64,000 bases of DNA from Endomicrobiales bacterium. GTDB lineage: Bacteria; Elusimicrobiota; Endomicrobiia; Endomicrobiales; CAWCFT01. This document shows positions 24,001-36,000 of this stretch, piece by piece; the stretch's first letter is position 1, and each line of letters opens with the position of its first letter. Where the stretch lies: the NCBI GenBank assembly GCA_963794945.1, contig CAWCFT010000001.1:160001-224000 (forward strand), given 5' to 3'. The position numbers were made by a program.

Positions 24001-27000
24001 AAATGCGTTTTCTGTAATCAATAAAACCCGCACTGTGCCTATCTCTGGGCCGCGTAAGATCTATACTGTAAATATTTCGTATCGTACCAGGCCTGTTGGA
24101 CATAACTACTACGCGATCGCCAAGATATACTGCCTCATCTATATCATGCGTAACCAGAATAACTGTTGTTTCTTCAGCCGTACGAATACGCTGGATTTCT
24201 TCATGCATCTGTATTTTGGTAAAAGCATCCAAAGCGCCGAATGGTTCGTCCATAAGCAGAATTTTCGGGCGGTTCACTATCGCCCGGGCTATCGCTGCGC
24301 GCTGAGCCATGCCGCCCGAAAGCTGGTGCGGATAGGATCTCTCAAAACCCTTTAAACCGACCAACTTAATATGTTCCATTATCGAACTATTAGCTTCTGT
24401 ATTACGCTCAGGTAATCCAAATGCGATATTTTCTTCGATCGTAAGCCATGGGAATAACCTGTGCTCCTGAAATACAAATCCACGGTTTGTTCCCGGCCCT
24501 TGTATTGAGCGTCCGTCAATAAGCACTGATCCAGAATACCCATTCTCCAGACCTGCTATAATCCTGAGCAGAGTACTCTTCCCGCACCCGCTTCCGCCAA
24601 CAATGCATATGAACTCTCCCCGCCCGATTTCAAGATTCAAGGACCGAAGCGCGGGCAGAATTTGTTTACGAATGAAAAAATCTTTATTGAGTCCTGAAAT
24701 TGACAATACTGATTGAACTTCATTGTTGGACATATATGACCACCCTCATATTTTCTTTTGCTTTGCTACAGGATTTAACAAATACTCTGCATTCTTATAA
24801 TATATTTTGTTTTTAGTTTCTTTACACGGCACTGCTCTTTCTATTATTGTTTTGATCGTTTCTGCTCGCGCCCACGGAAAATCCGTTCCAAAAAGAATTT
24901 TATCTTCGCCGTGCTTCGTGATTATTTCCAGCAGTGAAGAACTTTCTATTCCCTCGATAAACGCAGTATCAAAATACGCTCCTGTTCCCACGAGATATTT
25001 TAGAACCTCGTCCCACATTCTGTATCCGCCCAGGTGAGCGAAAACAAGCTTCAGCCCTTCTATTTTCGTAACTTCTTTAAGGCGCTCAGGAGTGGAACGT
25101 ATGTGGTCCGGGTACGGAAAATCAAAACCCGCGTGGAACGTTACGATTATACCGAACCGTTTGCACGCTTCGTATATCTCGTAAACATCCGGATCATCAG
25201 GATAGAATCTCTGGTATTCGGGATGAAGTTTTATTCCCTTAATCCCATTCTCAGCTAGAAACTGCAGCTCTTCCAAAACGTTGCCTACTTTTCTATATTC
25301 AGGATGCATTGCCCCGAAACAGATAACATCTCCCGGGCTGCCGGCATTAAATTCGATCATTTTCCTGTTTATGCCGCACACCTGCTCCTTCTTGGTAGCC
25401 ACCGGCAAATTCACGGAAATTGAAACCTCATCCTTATCCATAAATTCCCGCAAAGCGGCAACTGTACCGTCGCTGCATGCCTCAAACTTGCCTTCTTTCC
25501 ATAATGCGGCTAAGCTCTGCTGCGCTATCGCGTCAGGGAAATGATGAGTGTGAATATCAATAATTTTCATATCACTGCCAGTTCATTATTTTACCGCGAA
25601 CGGCACAACAGCGCCTTTGTAACGCGTTTTAATGAAATCTCTGATCTCTTGTGAACACAGGACCGCTAGCAATTCTTTTACCGCGGGGCGTCCAGTGTCT
25701 CCCTCGCGCACGGCCACAATATTGGCATAATTTCTCGCAGCAACCGAATCAGCCTCTTCCCGCGCAAGAGCATCTTTGTAAGGAGAAAAACCCGCGTCTA
25801 TCGCATAATTGCCGTTGATCACGGCGGCTGATACACTGTCCAAAACCCGGGACAATTGCGCGGCTTCTATCTCAATAAGCGTCACTTTAACGAAATAACT
25901 CTGTATGTCCTTTATTGTCGCATTCAAATTATGTGAATCCTTTAGTTTTATGATGCCTTTATCCTGCAAAAGAATAAGCGCCCGCGCCTCATTGGTTACA
26001 TCGTTGGGTATGGCTATCTTATCGCCAGCACGCAATTCTTTTAGAGACTTTATCTTCTTTGAATATACCCCCAGCGGTTCGTAATGGACAGCTCCCGCGG
26101 AAACCAAAGAAGCGCTATTAGCCTCGTTAAAATTCTTCAGGTATGGGAGATGCTGAAAATAATTCGCGTCAAGGCTCTTGTTCTTAAGCGCTAAATTCGG
26201 TGTCATATAATCGGTAAATACTTTAATTTGAAGGTCTATGCCTTTCGCCTTTAACAAGATCTTTACCTTCTCAAGGATCTCGGCGTGCGGAACAGGTGTT
26301 GCTCCTATAACCAGCACTTCATCCCCTGCGTGTGCGCGAAACACGAATAGAAATAAACTCAATATCATCCAAACTAGATTAAGTTTAACTTTCATATTAT
26401 GTGCCTGCCTATGCGCATCATATCCATGCCGCCGGATCTACTTTCCCTTTAATATGCCATGTGCCGCGCACTTTTTTCCAGTATTCATCCCGTTCCAATT
26501 CTATAAGCGCGATATCATGGTCATTTAAATGCTTAAATCTGCCTTGTTTGCTTAAATAGTCTTTAACCGGAATAAATGCAGCCGGCCCTTTGTTTAAAAT
26601 GTATTCTCCGTCATAATATTCGCCTAAGATCCATAAACCTGAATCTACCGCTTCGCGGGCGACTTTAACGCATTCTTTTTCACTGAAGCCCCAGCCAGTC
26701 GGGCACGGAGACAGCACATGCAGGTATGAAGTTCCGTTAACCGAAGCGGCGCGCGCAACTTTATTCAGATAATCCTCGGGATACCCGATACTCGCGGTAG
26801 CGGCATAGTCGACACCGTTTGCCGCGGCTATTTCGAACATGTTCTTTTTGCCGGTTGCCGACCCCTTCATCTGAACGCCAACCGGAGAAGTTGTTGTTCT
26901 CGCACCCCTTGGAGTAGCCCCGCTTTTCTGGACACCGGTATTCATGTAGCCTTCATTGTCGTAACAGATATAGATTATCTTCTCGTGCCTGTCTATCGCG

Positions 27001-33000: not shown

Positions 33001-36000
33001 CGATCTTGTTGTCTCAAGGTCTAAAGCCGATGTAGGCTCATCGCAAAGAAGAAGATGCGGGTCGTTGGCAAGCGCACGCGCTATTCCAACGCGCTGTTTC
33101 TGCCCTCCGGAAAGCTGGCCAGGATACGCGTGGGCCTTGTCTGACAAAGCGACTATTTCAAGCAGTTCCGGGACTTTTTTTGATATTTCCTTCGCGCTTT
33201 TACCGGATATTTTCATGGGAAAAGCAATATTATCGTAAACCGTTTTCGTATGTACCAGGTTATAATGCTGGAATATCATGCCAATCTTCTGCCGCGCTCC
33301 TCTTAAAGACTTTTTGTCAAGAGAAGTTATATCGATCCCTTCAACATTCACCTTTCCGCTGCCCGGCTTTTCAAGCAGGTTTACCGTGCGCAGGAGAGTG
33401 CTTTTGCCGGCGCCGCTTGTGCCGACTATGCCGAATATTTCACCCTTATTAACATCGAAAGAAACATTTCTTACGGCATGAACCTCGGCATCTTTTGTAT
33501 TGAAAGTGATAGATACATTCTCAAATTTGATCATATGTCCTTGTACACTGCGTGCTGCAGGGAGGCAGGGTAATATACCTCCCTGCAGCTTACGTTGTGC
33601 CTTTTTTATTTACCGTGTTTATCTTTAAGCCATTGAGGTATGGCAAAATCCTTGAAAACGTTTTTTGGGTCATAAATAACGTTTTCAAATTCCTTTGACT
33701 CAATCGCTTTCTTGATATCCTTTGTGAACTTGCTATCCAGGTCTTCGGTACGCACTGCGATGACAATAAGATACTTCTCTTCCAATGTCTCCCTTGCTAT
33801 GGCCGTCGGATATATTCCGGCGGAAATCGCGTAATTGCCGTTTACAACCGCGAAATCCACACTGTCAACCGTCCTGGGTATTTGGGCGGCTTCAACAGGC
33901 TGTATTTTCAGGTTTTTCGGATTTCCGACAACGTCCTTCTCAGATGCCTTTGTCGCATCAATAGATGGATTGATCGTTATTAATCCCAATGCCTGAAGAT
34001 ACCTCAAAGCCCTTGCAAGGTTCGAAGGGTCATTTGCGATAGTCACAGTAGAACCATCCGTAATTTCAGCGATTGACTTGAATTTCTTCGAGTAAATACC
34101 AAGCGCCGCCGTTGGTATTGATATCACGGGAGATATTTTAAGCTTCCTGTCTGCCGCGAATTTATCAAGATACACCTTGTGCTGGAAGGCATTTACATCA
34201 ATTGATTTATTGTCAAGCGCAATATTTGGCTGGACATAGTCGCTGAACTCTTTGACCTCAACTTTATACCCTTTCTTTTCAAGAGCCGGTATAACGCCGA
34301 GTTTTACAATATCACCGTATGGCCCGGGAGCTACGCCGAATACTATTTCTTTCTTTGGTTCGGCGAAGGCTCCCGATATGAATACTACCGTTGACAATAA
34401 TAACGCTGTCAGTATTTTAATCTTCATTTAGTACTCTCCTTTTAATCAATTTAGGTTAAAACTTATATATCACCGAAGCCTGGTAAATCTCGCCGTTCGA
34501 GGTTATTGAACCCTTGTATCCTGTGCTTGTGCTTGAATACTCAAAAGCTACAGTCGCGGCTGAGGTCAACTTATAGAACAATGATCCAAATGCCCTTCTG
34601 TTAAATGTCCTTCCGCCGGCGTTCAGGTTATCGCTGTTGGGATCATCCTCTCCATACCCGAAGTTTACATTAACTGCAGGCGTTATATTAGTAACAACCT
34701 GGCCCCATCCTCCTTTAGCTTCTATTGACTGTTTAAGGGTTGTATTAACACCCTGGTAAACACCTCCGTAAAATGCCGCCAAATCAGCTCCCTGCCAAAC
34801 CGTTCCTTGAAGGGAAACTATATTCGTAACGGGAAGTATGATACCGCCTATGAGAGACCGCGTATCGTAGTCTTGAAGGACTGGATTTGCGGCGGTAATG
34901 ATATTTGATTCAGTACCTGAATGCCCCGAAACACTTAGTCTTGCCGGTTTGCTGGTCCATAATTTCGCATCAGCAAACAAAGCTCCTTCTAATGTAGGTT
35001 GTCCGGAATCCGTGCCGCCATCCTGAACTCCGCCGGCATCAATTACCTGGCCTATTGTGCGGCCGGCTAACCTTCCGGTGACTGTAACACCACCTTCTTT
35101 GACGACTTGTGTTACGCGGACCTGAGGCCTACGGTTGTAAAGATTGCCGGTTGAACCTAAAAACGCGCCGTCAACCGTTATTGGGTTTACAGTGACGAAC
35201 GCGTCCCAATCCTGGCCGGCGCGGAGTGAAAACCCGCTGGGGTTTGCAAAATCCACATAAGCCAGCCGTATACGCGGCGCGACTGCATTTTCATTAGTTC
35301 CTCCAAAAGCAGATGTGTAAAAATCCAGTTCTAATTTTCCTGTCGTTTTCCAGTCATCACTTGACGGCCCGCTAAGATCAATGCCAAACCTTGATTCCCT
35401 TGCCGTAATATCCAGTGAACCCTGCGTTTGGCCGGCAACTGTGGGTAAATTATAGAAATTCAGGTCTCCGACAAATGTACGCTGGGTAGCCTCGATAACA
35501 TCCAGTTTTACATAACCATACAGCTTAGCCGTGACCGGTGCGGCATCTTCAGCAAAAACTGCATAAGGTACTGCTAAAAGCGCAACAAGCGTAGTTACTT
35601 TTACAATAATCTTCTTCATTTTTCTAACTCCTTAATTTATATTTTGCCAGTTGTTCGGATATATATTTTTAATAACTGCGGTTATCCGCCAGTTTACACG
35701 TCATCCATTTATAGGCATCACCTCCGGTGATAGATTTGCGAAGTATTTAACAACAAAAAACCAGCCAACTGTAAATGTAAATCAAGGTTTTCCTGCCCTT
35801 GACACATCTTCCAGTTGGCTGGTCAGATTATCGTTTGGTCTGCTTTAGTCTTTGATCTTAATTATTTTTCTGCGGTTATCCGCTTTATTGGACGTTTACT
35901 TTATATACCTTCTCCTACTCCTATAATTTCGCGGTCAAACCGTGTTTTTTCGATCCGATCGATCTGCACAATTTTTAAATTATGCACGGTAACCGTCACC

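Follow-up and report, generated by a model that had tools for sequence, protein, structure and literature searches.

A candidate CO2-fixing route from 3-(methylthio)propionate to methionine encoded within a sulfur gene cluster of an Endomicrobiales bacterium and its relatives

A tightly packed run of minus-strand genes in an Endomicrobiales bacterium, encoding MetQ, MetN, MetI, a PaaK-fold CoA ligase, a class I aminotransferase, PorCDAB and a second MetQ, probably specifies a route from 3-(methylthio)propionate (MMPA) through its CoA ester and a ferredoxin-driven carboxylation to 2-oxo-4-methylthiobutyrate (KMBA), and from there by transamination to methionine. In this scheme, the AMP-forming ligase would activate MMPA to MMPA-CoA, the four-subunit oxidoreductase would combine MMPA-CoA with CO2 and reduced ferredoxin to yield KMBA, and the module's aminotransferase would convert KMBA to L-methionine, while MetQNI would import methionine or a near precursor. 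Such a route would allow anaerobes to regain methionine from a waste acid and would need neither homocysteine nor B12. In some Bacillota, lack of SAM would turn it on through the S-box; elsewhere, the signal would presumably be lack of sulfur. Both methionine fermentation and DMSP demethylation yield MMPA as an end product. A preliminary description of the locus had proposed that the module interconverts methionine, its 2-oxo acid and 3-(methylthio)propionyl-CoA. This idea gains here from S-box leaders, gaps in methionine synthases, an aminotransferase swap and data on Clostridium thermocellum pfor2. We infer both the substrate and the direction of flux; rather than an open interconversion, the direction from acid to methionine, i.e. 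salvage, is now the most likely.

Results

Organisation of the locus

The module genes were found, as described before, at positions 25586..34427 of the window (the whole stretch of 64,000 nt that was analysed), and all of the reported flanking genes (metX, metW, rrf2, a metB-like gene, cbs, cysK and metY) were recovered as well. All features named here lie on the minus strand. A leader (35620..36122) contains a small DUF2292 ORF (35901-36122; Pfam PF10055, 57.6 bits) followed by a long hairpin that ends in a U-run and has a fold z of -6.3, none of 200 shuffles being equally stable. This leader has no Rfam match and may have a regulatory role. The first gene of the run encodes a DcaP-like outer-membrane porin (34456..35619; PF19577, 28.4 bits, cut 27), which occupies the same position in locus L001 with 79% identity. 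It is followed by genes for a module-linked type of MetQ close to Neisseria GNA1946 (33606..34427; PF03180; best PDB hit 3gxa, E 4e-63), the ABC ATPase MetN with a NIL domain (32503..33534; TIGR02314 376 bits, below the cut of 500; PF09383) and the permease MetI (31872..32534; PRK10782 191 bits, below the cut of 212). Next come the intact gene for the AMP-forming acyl-CoA ligase (30524..31855) and the aminotransferase gene (29362..30519), recognised by profile and relatives as YbdL / glutamine transaminase K-like. The oxidoreductase is encoded by porC (gamma; 28824..29365; TIGR02175), porD (delta, 2x[4Fe-4S] ferredoxin-like; 28538..28837; TIGR02179, above cut), porA (alpha; 27353..28541) and porB (beta, TPP-binding; 26418..27356). 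A second metQ, of the ordinary type according to PF03180 and a motif table, completes the module (25586..26395). The same run continues downstream with genes for an amidohydrolase, an SsuB-like ATPase, a QueG-like Fe-S protein, an SsuA-like binding protein, an SsuC-like permease and a GNAT acetyltransferase (20785..25570), separated by gaps of at most 99 bases. These are followed by CBS, cystathionine gamma-lyase/synthase, a CymR-like Rrf2 regulator, MetX, MetW and an unknown ORF (15542..20771), and cysK and metY, the latter as two ORFs, lie upstream (36225..38496).

Four indels break three of the module genes. Two of them, near 29896 and 29730, split the aminotransferase gene into three ORFs, and the others lie near 29300 in porC, where the frame changes relative to relatives, and near 28510 in porA. 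A near-identical public contig of 151 nt carries one extra base at 29724. These frameshifts are most likely assembly errors, and the module copy of this genome is presumably intact.

The ligase and the aminotransferase

The ligase, a soluble enzyme, has the PaaK-type ANL fold with P-loop, A5, A7 and A10 motifs, the conservation of which was followed over 184 rows. Its structural model has a pLDDT of 84, and Foldseek placed BT_0428, PaaK2 and HCL as the nearest folds. As previously noted, its scores are far below the PaaK cuts (TIGR02155, 291 vs 646; NF041878, 331 vs 700), and the A. thermocellus orthologue gave similar values (318 and 344, respectively). The subfamily forms a separate clade. 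Pairwise alignments and motif tallies showed that both aryl-pocket segments differ from those of solved PaaK structures, where we assume the assignment of the pocket-lining residues. One pocket segment, with Asp152, is near-invariant, and the polar residue in the pocket is Asp or Cys. We propose this enzyme as a candidate 3-(methylthio)propionate:CoA ligase, its function being predicted. AMP-forming ligases favour acyl-CoA synthesis.

The aminotransferase was likewise confirmed to lie below the cut of its nearest model (PRK09082, 420), with scores of 319 for the intact L001 orthologue and 346 for that of L116. The PDB neighbours of the L001 orthologue are Rv0858c, YbdL and kynurenine aminotransferases, in keeping with a class I fold, and the motif of the PLP lysine is near-invariant over 64 orthologues. 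At the position of Phe-Thr in YbdL the module enzymes have Ile-Arg, of which the Arg is near-invariant. In two Rhodocyclaceae loci (L017 and L058), the gene 3' of porB encodes instead a methionine aminotransferase scoring 571 and 579 against the same cut. Two of 120 homologues carry the JGI automatic name 'L-glutamine---4-(methylsulfanyl)-2-oxobutanoate aminotransferase'.

The oxidoreductase and C. thermocellum pfor2

The four Por subunits have the substrate Thr and Arg, the TPP motif and the Fe-S cysteines. PorA scored 451 (5'-truncated ORF) and its intact orthologue 486 against the NF040682 cut of 550, and PorB scored 325 against 405. The scores with the Vor models are also below their cuts (VorA model PRK08366, 343 vs 646; VorB-type PRK11864, 323 vs 405). 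A POR_N match in a frame of at least 1000 aa, separate from the module, was present in 20 of 34 ligase-bearing genomes. The Endomicrobiales genome encodes separate Ior+PaaK, Vor-like and Kor-like enzymes, including an IorAB-PaaK-ACT cluster on contig C16, and no single-chain PFOR was found in it, so that the module may have a part in pyruvate metabolism here.

The ligase of L116 is 100% identical to that of A. thermocellus, and both published primer ends of Clo1313_0382-0385 lie right 3' of the ligase and aminotransferase genes in L116. The C. thermocellum pfor2 / kor2 cluster (Clo1313_0382-0385), together with Clo1313_0380 and 0381, is thus the orthologous module. Its ligase is 69% identical to the Endomicrobiales ligase. 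In front of the C. thermocellum module lie genes for corrinoid methyltransferases and for an ABC transporter of the SsuA-like type, where the Endomicrobiales module has MetQNI. Deletion of pfor2 left PFOR activity in C. thermocellum unchanged (PMC6125887). The C. thermocellum pfor2 deletion strain is LL1559. Expression of the ligase, aminotransferase, porC and porA genes was up by log2 values of 3.5, 3.1, 2.3 and 2.2, alongside APS reductase with 4.5 (PMC5209896 supplement). When pfor2/kor2 was placed in A. woodii, 0.3 mM (heterotrophic) or 1.8 mM (autotrophic) isobutanol was formed from added ketoisovalerate (PMC8072342), which suggests that pfor2 is not restricted to KMBA. Branched-chain fatty acids are supplied by pfor4 and not pfor2, the contribution of which was seen only in a pfor4-deleted background. 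KMBA is usable by OFORs (PMC13768988 Table 1). Lastly, the module-linked MetQ has retained its C-terminal Asn (27 of the 29 MetQs at the loci), and uptake of the acid by this transporter is therefore not supported.

Conservation of the module

A recount at 44 genome loci of at least 12 kb around ligase relatives reproduced the earlier numbers for PorA (37), PorB (37), MetI (24), MetB (14) and Rrf2 (7), and MetQ was present at 24. The aminotransferase, for which 37 had been claimed, was found at 36 loci with an identity cut of 45%, and CysK/CBS amounted to 18. Among 65 subfamily loci of at least 12 kb, the aminotransferase, PorA and PorB occur together with the ligase in 41, SsuA-like transporters take the place of MetQNI in 13, and Met/Cys genes are present in 48, compared with 0 of 25 outgroup loci (at least 12 kb, ligase less than 50% identical). 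Since none of these 25 loci had any of the recounted module and neighbour genes, the association is more than chance. Sulfur-uptake or Met/Cys genes were also present at 14 of 20 sister-ligase loci. At two Desulfobacterota loci (L007 and L046), the ligase was found with no Por or aminotransferase within the stretch examined. In L007, L247 and L249-L251, the oxidoreductase-free ligase is located beside acyl-CoA dehydrogenase/ETF, an HpaB-family enzyme, aldehyde oxidoreductase and sigma-54 regulators, and these settings look catabolic. No dehydrogenase or hydratase belongs to the full module. Other neighbours include a corrinoid protein and two MtaA/CmuA methyltransferases (L116 and 5 related loci), a 3-mercaptopropionate-dioxygenase relative in one operon with a sister ligase (Azospirillum), nitrogenase-like genes (4 loci), and D- and L-2-hydroxyacid dehydrogenases (L017). 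Such neighbours suggest a link with methylthio compounds and C3 thio-acids.

SAM-I riboswitches and methionine synthases

A SAM-I riboswitch directly 5' of the module or ligase was found in 7 of 52 sources scanned, belonging to four Bacillota groups. It is triple before metQNI-ligase-AT-porCDAB in L009, L011 and L012, single in L145, directly before ligase-AT-porCDAB without metQNI in L014, and directly before a stand-alone ligase in L252 and L253. Two further aptamer starts in L013, broken by N gaps, missed the Rfam cut. Terminator or antiterminator folds are located 3' of the aptamers in these relatives. S-box leaders with terminators normally switch genes off at high SAM. No S-box was found in 44 of the 52 sources (45 with L013), including the Endomicrobiales window. 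The designation as a methionine regulon is therefore established for the Bacillota relatives only; here and in C. thermocellum, the module looks like part of a general sulfur-shortage cluster.

MetH (PF02574) and MetE (PF01717) had no match in the genomes of L009, L012 and L013, which are close kin and of unestablished completeness, and MetA, MetX and HcyBio also had no match in those of L009 and L013. Both of the latter have MetK and methionine gamma-lyase, the lyase being found in three S-box genomes altogether. MetH was present in 28 of 35 ligase-bearing genomes.

Discussion

The main rival of the conversion of MMPA to methionine is a path one methyl shorter, in which activation and carboxylation of 3-mercaptopropionate would yield 2-oxo-4-mercaptobutyrate and amination would then give homocysteine, feeding CBS/cystathionine lyase for cysteine and MetH/MetE for methionine. 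CBS and cystathionine lyase indeed belong to the same run here and are found at many loci, a sister ligase shares an operon with a 3-mercaptopropionate-dioxygenase relative, the S-box ligase of L253 precedes HcyBio, metH and metF, the ligase pocket holds a polar Asp or Cys, and the frequency of MetH makes a homocysteine product possible in most genomes. Nevertheless, we consider this path rather unlikely, since S-box-controlled modules occur in genomes without a MetH or MetE match, where homocysteine would be useless for methionine, and since a true methionine aminotransferase takes the module slot at two loci. The module enzymes may take both MMPA and 3-mercaptopropionate.

It appears improbable that the module is catabolic, with imported methionine being transaminated and oxidatively decarboxylated to MMPA-CoA and methanethiol or sulfide being released for cysteine or energy, or with a lone ligase priming thiol elimination. 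MetQNI upstream, the induction alongside sulfate assimilation, and the oxidoreductase-free ligases beside acyl-CoA dehydrogenase/ETF or MetY, CysK and Ssu genes would fit such a role. However, S-box leaders with terminators have the wrong sense for methionine breakdown, which in three of the S-box genomes is already served by methionine gamma-lyase; leaving the CoA ester requires no AMP-forming ligase, and the full module is without dehydrogenase or hydratase. Just as doubtful is the use of another sulfur acid (thioglycolate to cysteine, or a sulfoxide or sulfinate analogue) or a broad acid-to-amino-acid salvage merely co-regulated with sulfur genes. A plain thioether does not explain the near-invariant Arg of the aminotransferase and Asp of the ligase, ketoisovalerate appears to be a substrate of Pfor2 when this is expressed in A. 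woodii, and SsuA-like transporters stand in for MetQNI at some loci; yet SAM control and the aminotransferase swap point to methionine, and this genome has separate enzymes of the Ior, Vor and Kor types. Finally, that the annotations as pyruvate:ferredoxin oxidoreductase and phenylacetate-CoA ligase are correct, and the sulfur setting is due to chance, is very improbable and largely refuted: the archaeal PorA model gives PorA its best score, the nearest folds are PaaK-type ligases and the Endomicrobiales genome yielded no single-chain PFOR, but every score is below its cut, PFOR activity survives pfor2 deletion, separate POR_N proteins are common, the pocket motifs are unlike PaaK and this genome has an IorAB-PaaK-ACT cluster of its own; the pfor2 data, S-box and aminotransferase swap support the misannotation proposed earlier.

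The proposed MMPA-to-methionine module resembles arylacetate salvage by IorAB and arylacetate-CoA ligase (the Bacteroides BT_0428 locus; methanogen Ior/Vor in reverse), in which an AMP-forming PaaK-fold ligase likewise adjoins a 2-oxoacid:ferredoxin oxidoreductase. A report on the Bacteroides aromatic module interprets it as amino-acid synthesis by reductive carboxylation and likewise argues from the preference of AMP-forming ligases for making acyl-CoA (PMC13285125). BT_0428 is the nearest fold, yet the module ligase is only about 35% identical to it and has another pocket. The present module further differs in its four-subunit Por/Vor-type enzyme instead of IorAB, its own aminotransferase, its sulfur/S-box context and methionine as the proposed product. 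It shares the aminotransferase group with the last step of methionine salvage (KMBA transamination by YbdL / glutamine transaminase K). In that pathway, however, KMBA arises from methylthioadenosine via an O2-dependent dioxygenase, according to PMC6302742, whereas it would here arise by CO2 fixation on MMPA-CoA. HCL (2-hydroxyisobutyryl-CoA ligase) and PaaK have the fold and size class of the module ligase, but this forms a separate clade with a different pocket segment and no neighbours in common. DmdB of DMSP demethylation catalyses the reaction that is proposed for the module ligase (MMPA + CoA + ATP to MMPA-CoA + AMP). DmdB enzymes are longer acyl-CoA synthetases that feed the oxidative DmdC/DmdD route to methanethiol.

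Synthesis by CO2 addition is known for aromatic amino acids and is apparently undescribed for methionine from MMPA. We lean slightly towards a dedicated and widespread CO2-fixing methionine route past homocysteine and B12, in which a new ligase subfamily commits MMPA, discarded by other microbes, and Por and the aminotransferase rebuild methionine; where an S-box ligase stands alone, it would be the sole enzyme specific to the route, and the remaining steps would fall to general oxidoreductases or to thiol elimination. If true, this would extend ferredoxin-dependent amino-acid salvage, known from the aromatic and branched-chain acids, by a branch for methionine, give 3-methylthiopropionate an anabolic fate in guts, digesters and sediments, and assign a function to C. 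thermocellum pfor2. In at least five phyla, it would also correct the common annotation of such genes as a pyruvate oxidoreductase and a phenylacetate ligase, and it would change genome-based predictions of methionine auxotrophy, as nominal methionine auxotrophs could cross-feed on fermentation waste.

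Gene organization and integrity of the module

The module (25586..34427, minus strand) belongs to a minus-strand run of 23 genes that extends from 35619 down to 15542 with intergenic gaps of at most 99 bases. The upper part of the run encodes a DcaP-like porin, MetQ, MetN, MetI, the CoA ligase (443 aa) and a class I aminotransferase, and is followed by the four Por subunits (in the order PorC, PorD, PorA, PorB) and another MetQ. Next come an amidohydrolase, genes for an Ssu-like transporter together with one for a QueG-like Fe-S protein, and a GNAT, and the lower part comprises CBS, a cystathionine lyase/synthase, Rrf2, MetX and MetW; cysK and metY lie upstream of the run. 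The leader that precedes the porin-metQ run (35620-36122, minus strand) holds a small DUF2292 ORF, then a long, very stable hairpin with a U-run (z -6.3), and contains a short GC hairpin motif in two copies. It has no Rfam match, and it is possible that it represents a sulfur-responsive leader. Scanning the cluster for promoters and terminators gave results at about the level of shuffled sequence (31 versus 32.8 and 28 versus 21.0, respectively).

Several other genes of this region were noted. The QueG-like or reductive-dehalogenase-like Fe-S protein (23098-23949, minus strand), which is encoded within the Ssu-like ABC transporter set and adjoins the amidohydrolase, has 1152 homologues with the automatic name epoxyqueuosine reductase, and it may act on an organosulfur compound. 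The GNAT (20785-21324, minus strand) is kin to the ArsN1 and phosphinothricin acetyltransferases, scores below all cuts, and could acetylate methionine analogues. After metW, the run ends with a 171-aa ORF (15542-16057, minus strand) that has no Pfam or NCBIfam match. Directly after the sulfur cluster, a TPP riboswitch (15385-15496, minus strand) is located ahead of thiM-thiE (13894-15174); thiM appears to be 5'-truncated, which is probably due to another assembly indel.

The aminotransferase is divided over three ORFs (indels near 29896 and 29730), PorC and PorA have one indel each (near 29300 and 28510, respectively), and metY is also split. The view that the module is a pseudogene cluster in the source genome is not favoured, because 16 of 49 orthologue pairs compared with the relative G004 likewise have a frame change or stop elsewhere in the assembly, a few of which may be shadow frames (the pairs derive from 20 G004 stretches with 227 ORFs in total). 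A public 151-nt contig is identical to the window except for one substitution, with an extra base at 29724. Two DNA runs covered the stretch in small pieces only, reaching one of the four module indels. We infer that the breaks in the module genes are assembly errors, and protein analyses were run on intact orthologues.

A distinct ligase subfamily with methionine and cysteine genes nearby

The preliminary description had placed the ligase far below the PaaK cuts, and this is borne out by the profile scores. The ligase has a PaaK fold; the predicted structure (pLDDT 84; nearest folds BT_0428, PaaK2 and HCL) confirmed the fold, and a substrate could not be named from such a model. Nevertheless, the ligase is a member of its own subfamily: in a FastTree analysis, 124 sequences with at least 50% identity formed one clade (support 0.95), separate from 47 PaaK/HCL-like sequences. 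One segment hardly varies over 184 rows, Asp152 being present in 182 of them, and we take it to correspond to the part of PaaK by which the acid pocket is lined. A sister ligase group has Cys at the Asp152 position and no adjoining oxidoreductase; sulfonate, sulfate, MetQ, MetY or CysK genes are close by in 14 of 20 of its loci.

Of the genome loci that span 12 kb or more, 44 have a ligase of at least 55% identity. Among these, PorA and PorB were each found in 37, the aminotransferase in 36, MetQ and MetI each in 24, CysK/CBS in 18, MetB in 14 and Rrf2 in 7, using gene identity cuts chosen by hand; the neighbour counts of the preliminary description were thereby matched. When metagenome loci were added, the aminotransferase, PorA and PorB occurred together in 41 of 65 loci of at least 12 kb. 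A Met/Cys gene was present in 48 of these 65 subfamily loci as compared to none of 25 loci around PaaK-/HCL-like ligases (<50% identity), a count that omits shorter loci (44 subfamily, 25 outgroup) and in which many loci are kin. The pairwise identities of the ligase correlate with those of the aminotransferase, PorA and PorB (0.81, 0.83 and 0.72, respectively), but this was not counted as evidence because kinship predicts it.

The closest named relative is found in an Elusimicrobiales MAG (L001; L numbers denote loci around ligase relatives), where the ligase is 89% identical and the gene order is the same. Within the order, only 2 of 61 genomes, the source genome included, have this type of ligase, all other matches being at most 41% identical. 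Besides these two genomes, the module with the oxidoreductase occurs, judging by record titles, in Bacillota, Spirochaetota (L064), Campylobacterota (L059, L061) and Rhodocyclaceae (L017, L058). The Desulfobacterota loci have the ligase without the oxidoreductase. The ligase occurs sporadically: it is present in 11 of 401 Bacillota genomes and in 27 of 251 genomes of a Rhodocyclaceae sample.

The usual module aminotransferase lacks the Phe of YbdL and has a near-invariant Arg adjacent to it. In L017 and L058, a methionine aminotransferase that scores above the PRK09082 cut is encoded in its place after porB. Genes for D- and L-2-hydroxyacid dehydrogenases lie amid the MetQNI genes of L017, and their products could supply the same 2-oxo acid. 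The module-linked MetQ of the window has Ile at the position of an Asn that presumably has a role in Neisseria MetQ. This Asn is missing in only 2 of 29 locus MetQs, and acid binding by MetQ was rejected as a family feature; nothing in the MetQ residues suggests that acids are taken up.

SAM-I riboswitches and methionine synthases

The window and 51 loci, 52 sources in all, were scanned with Rfam, and SAM-I aptamers were identified directly upstream in seven. L009 (6724-7302), L011 (6742-7322) and L012 (6738-7322) have a tandem of three, every one followed by a separate terminator, before metQ in one operon. L145 has one before metQ, L014 one before the ligase, metQNI being absent, and L252 and L253 have one before a stand-alone ligase of the Cys type. 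In L013, two aptamer starts are interrupted by N gaps. L009-L014 form one clade and L145 belongs to another in the ligase tree, which was built without L252 and L253. Terminator-like hairpins with U-runs lie 3' of the aptamers in L012, L014, L145 and L253, and a fold acting as antiterminator was predicted for L145 only. The folds predicted for L012 and L014 did not switch when the 5' P1 strand was removed, and the sense of the switch is therefore taken to be that of SAM-I riboswitches in general. SAM-I leaders turn genes off at high SAM, and the module product should therefore be methionine or a precursor. No S-box was detected in the window, where an Rrf2 gene is present within the run. A genome-wide SAM match seemingly near L002 was found not to lie in that locus.

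Two of these loci have further features. In L253 (1450-9912, minus strand), an S-box, the Cys-type ligase and a second S-box are followed by HcyBio, NIL-ferredoxin and UPF0280-like genes and, at the end, by genes for a MetH activation domain, MetH and MetF. In L012, a CRISPR array with 22 DR3-type repeats (15964-17375) is located just downstream of the module.

In 35 ligase-bearing genomes, MetH was matched in 28, MetE in 8 and neither in 6, among which are the genomes of L009, L012 and L013. Within the genus of these three loci, MetH is present in 5 of 22 genomes and was not found in that of L011. The genomes of L009 and L013 have no matches for MetA, MetX or HcyBio, and that of L009 has no MetY above the cut; MetK and methionine gamma-lyase are present in both. 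If these absences are real, the completeness of the genomes being unstated, the S-box-controlled enzymes there would help only via methionine made from an S-methyl-bearing compound.

The C. thermocellum orthologue and adjoining methyl and sulfur systems

The L116 ligase is 100% identical to that of A. thermocellus (C. thermocellum), and the primers published for Clo1313_0382-0385 could be placed on L116, with their ends immediately ahead of porC and immediately past porB. The module is therefore pfor2/kor2 together with Clo1313_0380 and Clo1313_0381. In a published study, the cluster is described as induced alongside sulfate assimilation (log2 rise of 3.5 for the ligase, 3.1 for the aminotransferase, 2.3 for porC and 2.2 for porA versus 4.5 for APS reductase), and its proteins as detected (PMC5209896).

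Upstream of the module, L116 encodes a corrinoid protein, two MtaA/CmuA methyltransferases and an activator. In Methanosarcina, MT2-family enzymes and corrinoid proteins are reported to shuttle methyl groups between 3-(methylthio)propionate (MMPA) and 3-mercaptopropionate (10.1101/548461). Corrinoid protein, MtaA/CmuA methyltransferase, activator and DUF1847 genes lie beside the module in L116 (1904-9982), L118, L121, L122 and L133, some of which also have an SsuA-like ABC transporter there; in L116, a CO dehydrogenase gene follows. In L022, L044, L045 and L051, nifB/H/D/K-like genes adjoin the module, D and K scoring below the nitrogenase cuts. Their order is nifB-X-H-cysK-D-K, and three of the four have a tRNA-Cys gene in the cluster region. 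In make-up, these clusters resemble the methylthio-alkane reductases of 10.64898/2026.08.20.746119, the available text of which does not mention the module.

Proposed pathway and alternatives

We consider it fairly probable that the module makes methionine from MMPA in three steps. The ligase would convert MMPA, ATP and CoA to MMPA-CoA, AMP and PPi; the oxidoreductase would form 2-oxo-4-methylthiobutyrate (KMBA) from MMPA-CoA, CO2 and reduced ferredoxin; and transamination of KMBA with an amino donor would yield methionine. AMP-forming ligases adjoining such oxidoreductases were interpreted as biosynthetic in PMC13285125. Counted against this pathway are the lack of an S-box in most loci, the presence of MetH in most genomes, the residues of the usual module aminotransferase and of MetQ described above, and the loci that have an Asp-type ligase but neither oxidoreductase nor aminotransferase.

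It is unlikely that 3-mercaptopropionate is instead converted to homocysteine, although the S-box ligase of L253 precedes a homocysteine-synthesis and MetH operon, which was also counted against the methionine reading. One ligase of the sister group, from Azospirillum, is encoded in the same operon as a protein closely related to 3-mercaptopropionate dioxygenases of solved structure.

A catabolic direction is quite improbable. Asp-type ligases also occur without the oxidoreductase or aminotransferase (L007, L247, L249-L251), near genes for acyl-CoA dehydrogenase/ETF, an HpaB-family enzyme, aldehyde oxidoreductase, an MtaA-like enzyme and sigma-54 regulators, and therefore the ligase alone does not fix the direction. 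In L247, L249, L250 and L251, the ligase adjoins a 460-aa protein without Pfam or NCBIfam match and sigma-54 regulators, the HpaB-family, acyl-CoA dehydrogenase/ETF or aldehyde oxidoreductase genes being present in only some; these four loci possibly reflect catabolic use of the same acid.

There is likewise only a slim chance that the module acts on another or a broad range of substrates. With pfor2/kor2, A. woodii is reported to form 0.3 to 1.8 mM isobutanol from added ketoisovalerate (PMC8072342), which suggests that the enzyme takes larger 2-oxo acids. In a pfor4 mutant, pfor2 is reported to make no further contribution to the loss of branched-chain fatty acids (PMC13011478). IorAB-PaaK-ACT, Vor-like and Kor-like sets are encoded separately in the source genome, so that the module is unneeded for aromatic or branched acids; the IorA-IorB-PaaK-ACT cluster (contig C16 92062-96050) is frameshifted in the assembly as well. 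The standard annotation, a pyruvate oxidoreductase plus phenylacetate ligase, is very improbable: no single-chain PFOR was found in the 86%-complete source genome, which was counted against the methionine reading, but deletion of pfor2 is reported to leave PFOR activity unchanged, its authors proposing another substrate (PMC6125887).

In the full-text literature searched, most subscription journals and the regulon databases lying outside it, we found no paper tying the module to methionine or MMPA, and an S-box listing of module genes could exist in such databases. The fate of methylthiopropionate is described as rarely studied (PMC6302742). The architecture of the module is already known; what is new is the substrate and product proposed here, by which MMPA would serve as a source of methionine.
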